DNA of 64,000 nt from Eledone cirrhosa (GCA_964016885.1 OZ024740.1:256928001-256992000); one strand, 5' to 3'; shown: positions 1,088 through 46,475, numbered from the stretch's first letter. Numbers and translations: made by a program. The notes: generated from the sequence alone by a model not told the origin.

Positions 1088-1860
1088 TGATGACGAAAGG
1101 CTTCTCTGTACGCTTCTTCGGAAAGTATGTTTATTCCCTTTCAGAAACTAATTAGTTGGGAGTGAAATTTTAGTAAGTAAGTTAATTTTATAATTTTCTT
1201 ATTTTACGTCTGTCATATTATTGTTCTGCAACCCCATGCATTGAACCACAAAGTTACTAAGACAAAACCTATATATTTGCTAGCATAAGTATGCATCTGT
1301 GTATATATATGTTACTAGATATACTAATTCTTTATAATTATCTCCAAATTATTTGTCGAGCAAAAAATTGGCCAAAACTGCTGCTATAGTAACAGTCAGG
1401 CTGCTGTCTTCTTAACAAACCACTTTCCACTGATTGACATCGATGTCACGTGATTGATTCTTTTGAATTTGCCACCGACGCAGTAGGCAGTGATTTTCTC
1501 AATGGCTAGGAATTTAGTCCACGCTTTGCTTTCTTCCATCCACTGAATTATTCTTGTATAAGTTCCCTGTGTCCACGTATTGCCTGGAAACTTAGCTGAG
1601 AATAGACTTCCCTGATGACGAAAGGCTTCTCTGTACGCTTCTTCGGAAAGTATGTTTATTCCCTTTCAGAAACTGATTAGTTGGGAGTGAAATTTTAGTA
1701 AGTAAGTTAATTTTATAATTTTTTTATTTTACGTCTCTCATATTATTGTTCTGCAACCCCATGCATTGAACCACAAAGTTACTAATACAAAACCTATATA
1801 TTTGCTAGCATAAGTATGCATCTGTGTATATATATGTTACTAGATATACTAATTCTTTAT
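1088..1860 (+). mobile_element. Family A non-coding unit, ~525-bp period, ~1.5 copies, flanked by (TA)n; atypical HHR-like core
   Basis: TGACGAAAGG occurs at 1091 and 1616. Core at ~1612-1650 is CTGATGA-CGAAAGGC..GCTTCTTCG-GAAA, with stems I and III irregular. Confidence 0.7.
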
Positions 1861-1908
1861 ATATATATATATATATATATATATATATATATATATATAT
1901 ATATATAT

Positions 1909-2944
1909 AAGAGACGTAAAATAAGAAAATTATAAAATTAACTTACTTACTAAAATATCACTTCCAACTAATTAGTTTCTGGAATGGAGTAAATATATTT
2001 TCCGAAGAATAATAAAGAGAAGCATTCCGTCGTCAGGAAAGTCTATTCTCATGTAAGTTTCCAGGCAAAGCGAGGACACTGGAAACTTATTTTAAAATAA
2101 TTCAGTGGATAGGAAATAGCAAAGCGTGGACTGAATTCCAAGCCATTGAGAAAATCACTGCCTCTACGTCTGTGGCAAATTCCAAAAGAATCGAACACGT
2201 GACATCGAGGTCAATCAGTGGAAAGTGGTTTGCTAATAAGACAGCGGCCTGCCTACAACCGTAGCAGCAGTCATGGCCAATATTGCTCGACAAATAATTT
2301 GGAGATAATAATAAAGAATTCATATCTAGTAACATATATATACATACAGATGCATATCAATGCTAGCAAATACATAGGTTTTGTCTTAATAACAGTGTGG
2401 TTCAATGCATGGGGTTACAGAACAATAATATAAGAGACGTAAAATAAGAAAATTATAAAATTAACTTACTTACTAAAATATCACTTCCAACTAATTAGTT
2501 TCTGGAATGGAGTAAATATATTTTCCGAAGAATAATATTGAGAAGCATTCCATCGTCAGGAAAGTCTATTCTCATGTAAGTTTCCAGGCAAAGCGAGGAC
2601 ACTGGAAACTTATTAAAAAATAATTCAGTGGATAGGAAATAGCAAAGCGTGGACTAAATTCCAAGCCATCAAGAAAATCACTGCCTCTACGTCTGTGGCA
2701 AATTCAAAAAGAATCGAACACGTGACATCGAGGTCAATCAGTGGAAAGTGGTTTGCTAATAAGACAGCGGCCTGCCTACAACCGTAGCAGCAGTCATGGC
2801 CAATATTGCTCGACAAATAATTTGGAGATAATAATAAAGAATTCATATCTAGTAACATATATATACATACAGATGCATATCAATGCTAGCAAATATATAG
2901 GTTTTGTCTTAATAACAGTGTGGTTCAATGCATGGGGTTGCAGA
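1909..2944 (-). mobile_element. Diverged family A copy, inverted, ~2 tandem units of 523 bp
   Basis: Near-identical short ORFs at 2102 and 2625 give period 523. The sequence is a diverged reverse complement of 1088-1860, with CTGACGA on the minus strand. Confidence 0.75.
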
Positions 2945-3059
2945 TATATATATATATATATATATGTAGAAGTTGTATTTAAATTGTTGGGATACAACAA
3001 CCAAATATTTTTATAACTGATATAAAGCACTCAACAAATTATTGGAGTAAAAATACGAT

Positions 3060-42540: not shown

Positions 42541-44444
42541 CACAATCACCGTGTCCCAAACTTTGCACACAGTAGACCGTTGTTTCGAAAAACATTTTTA
42601 CGTGACCCATGGCAATATATAAAACAAAATAGACTTGTGTTCAGTTTCGTTGCGCGGCATCTTTGAGCAGTGTATTTTTCATGCGTATCACTCCACCTTC
42701 GCATACACTTAATTACATATATATACGCATAAACCTACACAATTACACAAATAGGCGTTCATATGCTTATACGGCTCTCTGTCAATTTCGAGTATTTATT
42801 TTTTCGACCAACTGAAGGGCTCAAACTCACCAAGTAGACCCATCGTGACAAGAGAGTCCTTTTGAAAATCAAAGACTTCTTTAACTGTAAGATAATTTCA
42901 TGTTCAGTTTATGTGTTACTGTACAAATTGGTAAAGTAGGGGCTGTTAGCCGTTATATTTTTGTTCGATGCATTGATGAGACAGAAATAGCTAGTTGAAG
43001 CTAGTCGACATGTTCTTGATTTCGTTCTTCGGAAAGAACTTTCTGTTTTAGCCGCCGCATCTAGTTATACAGGATTGAAATAAATATTATTCAAAATGAA
43101 AGAGTCGATCTTCAAATACAATACGTAACGTAGCTTTGAAAATAGAGTAAATTAATTTAAATAAACCTGACGTACCCTATTCCTGGATTAAAAAAAACAA
43201 ACAAACATTATTTCAAACCCGAGAGTAACCTTACACACTGTCTCTTTAAAAGTAGAGTGAAACTATTTAAAGAGACCTTGTGTAAATTCTGGACATAACG
43301 TTTTTTAATGGTGCTTTAGAAATTAGAGTAAAATGTTTTGAAAAACGTTATTTCAATATCGGACGTTCCGACATCATTGGACGGATGAATTTCTCTGTCT
43401 TTAGAGGCAACAGCAAAGCCGGGCGTATTTTCCTTAAAGAAACTCAATGGCTATATGTGCATGACCAGCGCAATGTCTCCAGTTGGGATATATTGATTGT
43501 GGTAAAACCGGCGCAGGGATGTGCGCTACGGAGATGTATATGTCTATGATACGCTGTAAATCAGCACCCTCATGACCGTAGAAGGTCAAGGGAAAAGAGA
43601 AATGACATATAAACACACAATCAATGTTGGGTACATATTTTTACAACATTTCGACCCGCACAAAACAAGCTCACGTCACGGTCCTGTTCTTTCCGTGCAT
43701 TTCTTTTTAATCACACTTCACCATGCTTATGGCGACCTCGATTCGGGTGTACAGTGCTAATTGTTTACCAATGGCGGCTTATTCAATCACCAGCGTTTTA
43801 AATCCCAAACCCTTGTCAATGATAGCTGAGGCTGCTACATCTGTTGCAACATCTACCTTAGAAGCGTACGAACTTGTAATTGGGTTCTGTAATGCGAGTA
43901 AAGCTTTCAGTTTATCCATCAGCATTACAAAAACTTACATCATCCACAATCCAAGTCCCACCCCAATACAAATCAGAGATATACAACACCAACACCAGTT
44001 CATCAGTTCCCTACTATTCCCAACCTCATCGATAGGAAACACCTGAAATATTCAGAGATTTTTAGACATCTGGCGAGCAGAATGATCTCAGGTGCCTCAA
44101 TTAAAGCTGAAATAGTTAACCATACAGGGAAAGTTGCAAATGCTTTCAGTAAACTTTAGCATCGCCTAAGGAGAATCTCATTAGAAAGAAAAAATAATGT
44201 CTACTGAGATTCTAGATCGGAACCGTGTCGCCTATCATACTGACCAGCTTGATGTCTTTCATAAGCGATGCCATCAAACTATTTACAGATACAACTTACG
44301 TGACAGAATTTCAAATATTAACCTATTCTGTTTGAGTAAAATCCTTTCCTCTGCAATCTCACTGAGGATAGATTGGCTATATCAGATATACACACACGCA
44401 CACACATATATGTGTGTATGTGTGTGTGTGTATGTGAAAATGTC

Positions 44445-44542
44445 GGGACCCCGACGGCTGAGCTCATGCCGTTTCAACAGCTAGTTCCGAACTGAATCGT
44501 GGTGTTTTGGCGGCAAAAATAGTTGACGTTATCAGGGGAGCA
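44445..44542 (-). ncRNA. Family J HHR copy (CTGATAA core, probably impaired)
   Basis: ccc CTGATAA .. GAAA CGGCATGAGCTCAGCCG TC GGGGT on the minus strand; homologous to 46365-46460. Confidence 0.55.
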
Positions 44543-46089
44543 ACGATGTCAAAATATGGGCATACACTTTATACATAAGTCGTTAAGAAAGTATCTAGTT
44601 TATTAGGGAAGTGGTCAGTTTTGTGTACATGTGTTTATATGTACGTATAAACATATGTACCCCCCCCCCCCCCCCGGAAAGCTGACCAGGCAGAAGGAGC
44701 AACACGAAATGAAATATTTTCCTCAACATCTTAACGTGCCAACCGGTCCAGGAATCAAACATCTGACCTTGTAATTGTGGGACCAACATCTCACCCACGT
44801 GGCTTCACATATACAAAACAACCAATCCTATAACACTATTCACCAACCAGAACCTTAATGGATAAATACTGGTTTATTCGAAATATCGCAGTTTTCTCAG
44901 GGAAATTATAATAGTTTCAAAACAGTAATGTGTATTTTTCAAAAACATGTTTACTGCACTTAAAATTCCCGACCTCCTCACCCCACCTCGTTCTGCTTAT
45001 TTCTACTCTTATTCCTCGTCAACCTCCTCTTTCCGTCGATTCAGTCCACTACAGTTACTTCCGGTTTACTACTCCATTTTACATCGGATACACGCTGCAT
45101 CCGTTTGTAGGAGTCGCCTGTTTACAATAGAAATCAAAGGATTGGTGTGGTATTTTGTATTTGTTTGTGAAAGAGTACATAAACATACCAAGACACACAC
45201 AAACAAACACTTATAAACCTATACTCACTCACTTTGTACACATCCCGAGATATGCATATAGCTATTGTATAACTATATAAGTGTACATAAATATTATATA
45301 TATATATATGTGTGTGTGTGTGTGTGTGTGTGTGTGTGTGTGTGTGTGTGTGTGTGTGTGTGTGTGTGTGTGTGTGTGTGTGTGTGTGTGTGTGCGTGCG
45401 CGCGCGCGTGTGTGTGTATTAAAGAGAGTCATATTACATCCTAGTTAGTTTCTCAATTGATATATCTCAATATAAGATTATTTTATATTATTGATGCTCT
45501 GAACAGAAGTTTATTGGGATTTTACTGAGTAACATTATCAGTGAATATTTCATATGCATTGATGAAACTTAGAATTAAGTTATTTCTGTTCCTAATTTCT
45601 CTAAATTAGTTTTGAGCTGACTGAAATGGATTCGCCTGGAGCCCTTTCTAGCACTCCATTAAGATTTGTCCTGTTTACCTACCCAGCTATATATACTTCG
45701 TTATATTTACACTACGAGGAAAACATTTAAATCATTTTTTCCAATGGTAGAAACTACAAATTTAACACAACGCGAGATATATATGTATTTTAGTGAAGAC
45801 TTAAACAGACTGTTAAAGAGTTTCATGGTCTTGATTGAGGTTCACCTTAATTTGATAAGTAATCAATGGTGAACATTAAATTCTCTGATTCTCAGAAACA
45901 GATCTGTATATGATAGGATGGTCATATTTGGAAGTACCTCCATTTAAATATAACATAATCATTATGTGAGTAATGTTTTTATTTAACATCTAAAATTGTA
46001 TTTGTTATATATGTATATATGTATTAAATACTAGTTTCTCAGTTGATATATCTCAAAATATCGTTACAAAATATTTCATACATATACAA

Positions 46090-46475
46090 CAACGAATGTG
46101 TGGTAAGATACCAGGTGGACTATAACGCACCAGAGCACTCAATATTTAGGATAGTAGATCGGGTAATAGGAAAAGAGTCAGGACCCCGATGGCTGGGCTC
46201 CGGCTGATCCCGCGCCGCTATGAAGGAATTTAACTATGTATACAGCATCCCTGATCATTGACCACTCCTTTTGACAGACAAGAAAAAGAACGACCTTTTA
46301 TGATTTTTTGCTTAGATACTTTTCCTTTTTTTTTGGTTTGACTGCATGCTCATAAAAGGACTGTACCCCTTGATAAGTTCAGCTAGATTCCTGCCGTTAT
46401 AATACTGGTGGATTTGTTCGGATCTAGCTGTCGAAACGGCTGGAGCTCAGCCGTCGGGGTTCTGACTCTTTTCCT
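46090..46475 (+). mobile_element. Family J element with an inverted 5' piece; further fragments at ~53855-53925 and 56160-56345
   Basis: aggaaaagagtcaggaccccga (46168) is inverted relative to tcggggttctgactcttttcct (46454). Confidence 0.7.
46365..46460 (+). ncRNA. Type I hammerhead ribozyme with a U3-A8 compensated core
   Basis: ACCCC TTGATAA gttCAGCTAGATTC..GGATCTAGCTGtc GAAA CGGCTG-gagct-CAGCCG TC GGGGT; cleavage predicted after 46455. Confidence 0.82.

Follow-up and report, generated by a model that had tools for sequence, protein, structure and literature searches.

The window analysed here, 64,000 bp of Eledone cirrhosa DNA (OZ024740.1:256928001-256992000; GC 37%, rich in (TA)n), contains ten families of hammerhead-ribozyme repeats, A to J, whose 21 assigned segments make up 10,775 of the 64,000 bp. 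Most copies adjoin (TA)n and some adjoin other elements (Table 1). Open reading frames (ORFs) and remnants of Penelope-like elements (PLEs) lie among them, including two broken endonuclease remnants of the Hydra type. An earlier note on this DNA had described a community of about ten small retroelement families, each with a hammerhead, and had given eleven sites. All eleven (3311, 3698, 4611, 16501, 26869, 27227, 28596, 29008, 30841, 41361, and 46365) proved to be hammerhead-shaped motifs, and at two of them, 27227 and 29008, the position given is the lower end of a motif on the minus strand, with cores at -27332 and -29046. These sites belong to nine families, C and I being represented twice each, and family A, whose periods that note had listed, adds three cores (1612+, 2036-, and 2559-), bringing the number to ten. 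The estimate of about ten families holds as at least ten, for a set that is mixed in kind.

The 7-mer CTGANGA, expected at every site, was found at nine of the eleven. The core at 30846 reads ATGATGA (C3A), its tandem twin at 31312 CCGATGA, and a copy near 11809 GTGATGA, while the core at 46370 is TTGATAA, a U3-A8 covariant. The first three belong to family E, whose tandem units agree at 572 of 574 positions; both differences fall on C3 and U4 of the core (30846-30847, 31312-31313), and the third copy (about 11808-11809, minus strand) has yet another C3/U4 pair. Possibly only poorly cleaving RNAs survive for copying, or the core is a junction site. CTGANGA alone was not above chance (36 seen; shuffle mean 22.5, maximum 38). 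The full type I fold, by contrast, was matched at 11 distinct sites against a mean of 0.07 and a maximum of 2 in 100 dinucleotide shuffles of the window, and a relaxed fold scan gave 14 against 0.17 in 12 shuffles. One of the 11 full-fold matches, at -50901, lies outside any family and is probably a chance match, and CTGANGA at 19095, 29701, 34768, and 38813 had no fitting GAAA box and was left out of the count. The type I core (CUGANGA, GAAA, and NUH round stems I-III, open at stem I) was found in A, B, C, D, F, G, H, and I, and in J by way of the U3-A8 covariant. Both U3-A8 and U4C variants are on record, U4C being reported as weak (PMC3088659; U3-A8 also in PMC4209133).

A check by the hammerhead covariance models of Rfam, proposed in the earlier note, returned no hammerhead among the 150 of 176 matches listed for the window, and two focused scans returned none among 20 and 23 matches; long stem II variants may lie outside these models. 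Stem covariation was looked for and seen in small sets, in A and in B together with C. In family A, 95.7% of 69 cells were paired and 3 of 23 pairs were changed on both sides (3 sequences; 17 of 500 shuffles scored as high). In B and C, 96.4% of 84 cells were paired and 2 of 14 pairs were changed on both sides (6 sequences); 220 of 500 shuffles were as high for the changed-pair count and 1 of 500 for the percentage paired. With so few sequences the signal is modest in both sets. Stem III is an exact palindrome in six of the ten families (A, B, C, D, E, and G) and in H misses being one by a single mismatch; the loop is palindromic in J, F has a long stem of the monomer type, and I shows neither feature. 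Differing stem III palindromes are the expectation of dimer folding (PMC4209133). Circular-fold stability is uneven, with z values of -0.6 for A1, -2.2 for A2, -3.9 for D, -9.4 for E, and -3.4 for H (20 shuffles each), that of E being probably inflated by TA palindromes.

The reported periods of 525, 523, 519, 466, and 482 bp are all real, with identities of 240/244, 500/511, 159/161, 572/574 and 116/116 (both for 466), and 96% over 150 nt, respectively. Head-to-tail closure is confined to A, D, E, and H, and no period was found in B, C, F, G, I, or J. Of the description as partial tandems or fold-backs bounded by (TA)n, the fold-backs were borne out in B, C, D, E, F, G, I, and J, whereas periodicity applies to four of the ten families. 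In five unit copies of A, D, E, and H the longest ATG frame is 41-112 amino acids, and tblastn of 131 PLE proteins against 18 segments gave no match at E 0.01 (best blastx E 0.047). The subfamilies of A are 86% alike and those of E 85% alike, and each closes at the same period at separate loci. Two consecutive complete hammerheads, the rule by which Li et al. call a retrozyme active, are present in A2 (2559, 2036); E2 has two units with altered cores, and A1, D, and H have one full core per arm. A and H are related (60% over 362 columns; z 5.3 for the tail and 8.2 for the region after it), as are B and C (64% over 210 columns). As ORF-less head-to-tail units A, D, E, and H fit the published kind of non-LTR (long terminal repeat) retrozymes in the features accessible here. 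The proposal that the families are non-autonomous and retrozyme-like is supported for these four; it is not supported for I and is doubtful for B, which is likely a PLE terminal piece. C, F, G, and J are present only as short or folded-back pieces, which may be retrozymes or PLE ends. A likeness of E to the Neptune 3' untranslated region (z 15) reflected TA-rich sequence only, and a by-eye likeness of the B and C tails to J was not significant as sequence (z 0.4-0.5), the hairpin shape alone being common. Exact-pattern scans of metagenome contigs for the B/C and A motifs gave no matches in either case.

Family I is the 3' end of an autonomous PLE. The endonuclease C-terminus that runs straight into it is 51% identical to residues 740-774 of P0126 and also matches P0127 806-833 (E 2e-4 against the whole window), and the region 39625-41147 with family I is a classic inverted PLE insertion (PMC3846280). 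Since family I follows a PLE ORF, it is a plain 3' piece of a PLE, the outcome that the earlier note had set against its own reading, and its view of each family as a separate non-coding unit does not extend to I. A Naiad identity for 39625-41147 was rejected: the relatives P0125 and P0126 have the nuclease after the reverse transcriptase (RT), and the window nuclease matches their C-terminus. No hammerhead match was found in the PLE at 5806-11340, nor in the 3' region of its near-intact ORF (7717-10071). Both Hydra-type remnants have a C-x-C-x5-C linker ahead of a C-terminal GIY-YIG domain and lack the RT part; judged by the linker motif, they would belong to the Hydra clade, which is characterised by the CxCX5C linker, insertion into (TA)n, and canonical hammerheads (PMC8557442). 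Hydra-1_Obim from O. bimaculoides carries a hammerhead, so that octopus PLE hammerheads are already published (PMC8557442). Family B2 lies on the same strand as one remnant and downstream of it, with no TA run longer than 8 bp between them; downstream of the other (37170-37903) the fold scan of the window found no hammerhead. A relatives search with 37339-37869 gave one long protein among 335 candidates. Both remnants have an insertion between RT thumb and nuclease, asparagine-rich in the first remnant, downstream of which there is an AT minisatellite (these features being at 33755-33877, 34350-34450, and 37560-37730). Named relatives of the window's retroelement proteins were at 66% in O. sinensis, 57% in O. 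bimaculoides, and 71% in O. vulgaris. The families had been supposed to be mobilised by the neighbouring PLE proteins, but every local PLE ORF has stops or frameshifts, so mobilisation must be in trans.

The 3' ends were scored for overlap with the flanking (TA)n wherever a second copy reveals the continuing sequence. Of the hammerhead-family ends 10 of 14, and of all ends 12 of 17, overlap a TA run by at least 3 nt, against a null of 0.11. The overlap in TA alternation is 3-7 nt, and the binomial probability is 3e-6 at p 0.15, a value to be read with the sharing of sites between ends. A, B, C, D, F, and J have two 3' sites each, 60-120 nt apart. At the 5' side, the three ends checked overlap by only 1-2 nt. 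None of the mapped 5' ends coincides with the cleavage site, in keeping with a template that is uncut or has been re-ligated. The 5' ends of A1 (1089), H (28118), and Q (19845) lie within the core, at U4-A6.

A bulged hairpin follows closely on the first 3' site and has a four-pair outer stem, a 2-nt pyrimidine-led bulge on its 3' side, and an inner stem-loop. It was matched strictly in A, B, C, D, E1, G, H, J3, and P, and with one mismatch in F and Q, P and Q being families absent from the earlier note; nine of the ten families A-J carry it, at a chance of at most 0.7% per 75-nt window in the eight strict ones. The strict pattern was not matched in E2, J1, I, or L, and no tail hairpin was found in the copies of family I. 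Thirteen strict hits fall on the 10.3 kb of family sense strand, where 1.1 would be expected from the rest, and three on the antisense strand. With 11 families taken together, 75 of 77 positions are paired, and the inner stem shows at least four pair types. Since the pattern was written after the hairpin had been seen in most families and inner stems were chosen for pairing, these figures are optimistic. The test of position is less circular, as the positions of most ends were already fixed when the hairpin came to notice: of 14 mapped ends, 12 fall 0-19 nt ahead of it (11 of them at most 11 nt away), and the remaining two, which are at second sites, fall 61 and 114 nt past its start. The folds of the terminal tails are mostly unremarkable (one of nine beyond z -2). 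A hairpin of this kind was seen by eye in published Hydra-clade consensuses (PMC8557442, File S7). The tails of Hydra-2_Amil and Hydra-2_Ajap carry it behind TA-rich sequence, and the version in Hydra-1_Crog has a purine bulge and a single mismatch in the outer stem. Hydra-1_Ajap, which is TA-rich at its 3' end, has two such hairpins at its 5' start. A looser second hairpin, by eye and with weak folds, follows the second 3' site of A (1340-1365) and D (4463-4476), and echoes by eye the two hairpins at the 5' start of Hydra-1_Ajap.

Public DNA runs were searched with the stretch 1910-3408, which covers A and B only. Ten runs of seven organisms share part of it, the best holding 0.53 of sampled words, and reads or contigs were mapped from 4 of 13 listed runs (X1, X11, X4, and X6). 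On this stretch 7,919 contigs were mapped from X1, 36,692 of 12,467,656 raw restriction-site-associated DNA (RAD) reads from X11, 119 contigs from X4, and 7 contigs from X6, covering 30 of 30 bins in X1, X11, and X4 and 11 of 30 in X6. With every bin covered in three runs, the A unit is multi-copy in those runs over its full length. No RNA run was among those listed for the stretch, which bears on expression in neither direction. Loose ends reading (TA)n occur at 3060 (979 reads) and 3407 (5,041 reads), TA flank makes up 57,824 of the contig depth of 62,802 at position 2310, and depth is high beside the first 3' ends. In these runs both A and B are very numerous, and their 3' ends are discrete and joined to (TA)n. 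Independent spread in many copies is supported to this extent: in A by closure in two subfamilies and by read coverage, and in E by its two loci. Other loose ends, at 3122, 3134, and 3345, represent abundant B subfamilies (4,000-6,000 reads each) with another stem II that by eye is still paired. The runs mapped for three organisms carry real A and B pieces, and the families are to that extent common to several species labels.

Table 1 Positions, strands, and structure of hammerhead-repeat families and PLE sequences in the window.
Feature	Position	Strand	Description
Family A, copy 1	1089..1857	+	1.47 units of 525 bp; starts inside core at U4; core 1612 full, predicted cut after 1682; hairpins 1223-1246, 1748-1771; 3' end at second site
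Family A, copy 2	1910..2943	-	1.98 units of 523 bp; full cores 2559, 2036; subfamily 86% alike to copy 1; hairpin 2400-2423; 3' end 4 nt before hairpin position
Family B, fold-back	2965..3409	.	Head-to-head; cores 3318(+), 3154(-); hairpin 3029-3048(-); arms stop at two 3' sites
Family B, copy B2	32701..32835	-	Core 32796; 1.1 kb downstream of Hydra-type endonuclease remnant
Family C, fold-back	3512..3894	.	Cores 3704(+), 3611(-, G8A); hairpin 3811-3835
Family C, fold-back	26703..26967	.	Core 26875(+)
Family C, rearranged copy	39408..39627	.	Cuts off PLE RT arm; hairpin 39459-39483(-)
Family D	3923..4975	.	1.3 units of 519 bp and identical inverted arm; cores 4616(+), 4219(-); stem I weak; hairpins 4400-4423, 4919-4942
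Family E, copy 1	11472..12053	-	1.25 units of 466 bp; core GTGATGA; hairpin 11907-11933
Family E, inverted fragment after copy 1	12133-12340		
Family E, copy 2	30416..31649	+	2.2 units of 466 bp, inverted head; cores 30846, 31312
Family E, 3' fragment	38965..39150	-	Stops at same 3' site as other E copies
Family F	16144..16728	.	Core 16508(+); 8-bp stem III (monomer type); inverted tail arm
Family F, hairpin	16194-16215	-	One mismatch
Family G	27023..28068	.	Core 27332(-); stem II branched, about 83 nt; inverted deleted arm; hairpin 27137-27170(-)
Family H	28117..28750	+	1.3 units of 482 bp; starts inside core; full core 28600; hairpin 28275-28310
Family I	41130..41504	+	3' untranslated end and hammerhead (core 41365) of autonomous PLE
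Family I, shortened copy	28798..29365	-	Fold-back; core 29046
Family I, diverged copy	12557..12915	-	Core 12773
Family J	46091..46474	.	Core 46370(+), U3-A8; long stems II, III; inverted tail arm
Family J, diverged copy	44434..44600	-	
Family J, 3' fragment J3	56218..56360	-	Hairpin 56266-56289
Family P	16990..17599	+	Not in earlier note; core CCGAAGA near 17383; palindromic stem III; hairpin 17473-17506
Family Q	19717..19845	-	Not in earlier note; starts inside core; hairpin 19766-19784
Family Q, copy with internal deletion	about 32580-32636	+	
Candidate decayed family R (weak)	45420..46085	+	About 590-bp partial tandem; hairpin 45496-45530; candidate U3-A8 core near 45852, weak stems
Hydra-type GIY-YIG endonuclease remnant	33965..34566	-	Broken; CxCX5C linker in translation
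Second Hydra-type endonuclease remnant	37170..37903	-	Broken; CxCX5C in translation
PLE RT	39625..41096	-	Frameshifted; inverted arm of insertion ending in family I
PLE endonuclease C-terminus	41046..41147	+	Runs straight into family I
PLE	5806..11340	+	RT 7717-9612, in-frame stop, GIY-YIG 9613-10071, 1.4-kb inverted head

Several further elements resemble the families in part. Family L (18747-19630) is a 586-bp partial tandem in (TA)n with a 3-nt TA overlap at its end; it has CTGATGA at 19095 but neither GAAA box nor tail hairpin, and is retrozyme-shaped with no recognisable ribozyme. The two copies of family M (29366-29723 and 38518-38855) are 70% alike, and their likeness stops just past CTGATGA. 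Element K (17916-18617) has inverted arms of 202 bp (96%) in (TA)n and no hammerhead match. G and family N have a 59-nt end in common (27023-27081, 26535-26593, and 19956-20014), and in the G copy an 8-bp hairpin is followed by GAAA, perhaps half of another ribozyme. Tail-to-tail inverted end pairs centred on a TA run were seen at 1857/1910, 41493-41606, 56166-56239, and 39025-39149. Other decayed elements include an LTR retroelement, a mariner-like element with inverted ends, and several RT fragments of long interspersed elements (LINEs), at 20523-23649(-), 13006-13898, 14228-15544(-), 47423-48302(-), 58631-60350(+), 25001-26066, and 63155-63795.

We consider it probable that the window holds a mixture of retrozymes (A, D, E, and H) and PLE terminal pieces (I plainly, B likely, and possibly C, F, G, and J), and that a Hydra-clade RT-endonuclease using the hairpin most likely copies them in trans. 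The CxCX5C remnants, the (TA)n targeting of Hydra elements, and the hairpin seen by eye in Hydra ends together point to a Hydra-clade PLE as the trans partner. Tandem copies would be transcribed, and their hammerheads would self-cleave, mostly as dimers via the palindromic stem III; monomers would be ligated to circles, or uncut multimers would serve as template. The Hydra protein would nick (TA)n and bind the bulged hairpin in the RNA, and the freed DNA end would pair with the UA motif just 5' of the hairpin and then prime. Target-primed reverse transcription would run 1.2-2.2 times round the unit, and priming on both target strands would give fold-backs. Copies ending at the first site lack the hairpin, so that mobility would persist only in those longer than one unit or ending at the second site. 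A stronger version is tentative, and we lean against it: that one Hydra-clade RT-endonuclease serves at least 11 unrelated hammerhead families via one hairpin kept from coral and sea cucumber to octopus, that this explains the need for over-unit copies, that 5' ends at U4-A6 are footprints of the enzyme meeting a dimer, and that alignment is telomerase-like.

Several observations weigh against the reading of a mixture of retrozymes and PLE pieces copied in trans. As to the ribozymes, the core of family E is non-canonical at C3/U4 in all three copies, one being U4C; for A1, D, G, H, and P the fold predicted at minimum energy is other than the three-way one; and eight of nine Xenopus retrozymes assayed by Li et al. 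did not cleave (bioRxiv 10.64898/2026.07.22.740005). As to the ends, four of 14 score 0 by the strict rule (C2+, D-, I2, and B2), the junctions are not independent because they have sites in common, and a Poseidon PLE starts with no homology to the cut DNA (PMC11167929). As to the hairpin, the pattern is post hoc and its significance overstated, the window-wide excess is only 26 against 12.6 (maximum 21), E2 and J1 miss the strict pattern, and MAFFT did not align the hairpins in register. The Hydra comparison was made by eye and holds in four of six consensuses, Hydra-1_Obim and Hydra-1_Amil giving no clear match (PMC8557442), and the 1.1 kb between B2 and the end of the Hydra ORF exceeds the published Hydra 3' ends examined. 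The related families A and H show no detectable likeness over the final 140-190 nt of their units (z about 0). As to the public runs, read mapping covered A and B only, the best runs hold about half of the sampled words and may be of related species, and RAD reads and summed contig depth are not copy numbers.

Among other explanations, all families might be plain 3' pieces, that is pseudo-LTRs (pLTRs), of many autonomous PLEs, the four periodic ones having arisen by one-off deletions or duplications. Family I is such a piece and B probably another, six of the ten families have no period, contig depth in B drops toward the 5' side, and most minimal animal hammerheads have been ascribed to truncated PLEs (PMC4209133). 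We nevertheless judge this unlikely as an account of the whole set: subfamilies of both A and E close at the same period at separate loci, all A-unit bins are covered in three runs, and the units of A, D, E, and H have no PLE protein match. A little less likely again is retro-mobility through another enzyme, be it a PLE of the Neptune/Nematis type, a Naiad, or a microsatellite-targeting LINE (Dong/R4), Dong being an element that targets TA. Other PLE types in the window also abut (TA)n, and both Hydra remnants in it are old and disrupted; (TA)n is the preferred target of octopus Naiads (PMC8557442), and O. vulgaris is reported to have many recent insertions of Dong-R4 and Penelope (PMC13282606). 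Against this, family I, which is tied to a non-Hydra PLE, has no hairpin, the hairpin is seen by eye in four of six Hydra consensuses, and Naiads lack canonical hammerheads. Least probable is a spread of satellites at the DNA level, in which breakage and repair at (TA)n made the fold-backs and trimmed the ends, with hammerheads and hairpins as passengers. It is favoured by the self-complementarity of (TA)n, by the tail-to-tail pairs having TA runs at their centres (1857/1910, 56166-56239), by the TA overlap that repair would also produce, and by the discussion of satellite-style local amplification in Li et al. (bioRxiv 10.64898/2026.07.22.740005), but the three 5' ends checked overlap by 1-2 nt, the ends are polar to the hammerhead strand and lie beside an RNA-type hairpin in unrelated families, copies run to 1.2-2.2 units and not to long arrays, and the stems show compensatory change.

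If retrozymes and PLE ends are copied in trans as we propose, the Hydra-clade protein and the 20-36-nt hairpin form a candidate pair of enzyme and signal for retrozyme mobility; in the literature examined, neither the enzyme nor the RNA signal for retrozyme movement is described. Should the hairpin fail, the window would still show retrozymes and PLE ends of an ordinary sort at unusually high density. The data also suggest that about a sixth of the window is hammerhead-bearing DNA missed by Rfam. The literature searched holds no description of octopus retrozymes or of the hairpin, though subscription papers or Repbase could hold one, and the main text of a curated O. vulgaris repeat paper does not mention ribozymes (PMC13282606).

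The closest known systems are the metazoan non-LTR retrozymes, which likewise consist of non-coding tandem units with a type I hammerhead, low GC, and no LTR, and are proposed PLE derivatives (PMC7229834; bioRxiv 10.64898/2026.07.22.740005). The units described here are 466-525 bp long, compared with 170-400 bp in the 2020 paper (PMC7229834), and lie within the 51-972 bp of Li et al. They differ in forming inserts of 1.2-2.2 units in (TA)n with PLE-like fold-backs, and in many cases in a long or branched stem II; the available text of Li et al. mentions neither octopus nor a common 3' hairpin or partner clade. Hydra-clade PLEs are alike in (TA)n targeting and in a type I hammerhead at the 3' end, where the first position of stem II is often unpaired or U-U, as in E and B2 (PMC8557442). 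Unlike the units, they encode an RT and an endonuclease, and the main text of that paper mentions no hairpin or stem-loop and no non-autonomous units; in its supplement, six family motifs had no exact match. The hammerheads of PLE pLTRs (PMC4209133, PMC3846280) show the same short palindromic stem III, the U3-A8 variant, the extra base after A9 (as in I and F), head-to-head inversions, and an optional one-arm tail. In comparison with these, tails here are non-coding and 60-120 nt long instead of 30-40 nt, and four families have no ORF in the unit.

Two further systems bear on how such copies start and how they depend on partners. Poseidon_Ac (PMC11167929) resembles the proposed mechanism in having two internal starts downstream of the hammerhead, a protein-binding region 3' of the start, and an uncut RNA template. 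Its start, however, lies in an AC-rich stem-loop of the ORF and lacks homology to the target, whereas the ends here share TA and lie just 5' of the bulged hairpin. Chlamys elements, MRC1 among them (PMC8557442), offer a precedent for non-autonomous PLE partners with head-to-tail microsatellite inserts, although they are green algal, have no hammerhead, and can be aligned to their partners at the 3' end. A kinship of retrozymes with PLEs is already in print (PMC7229834; bioRxiv 10.64898/2026.07.22.740005).

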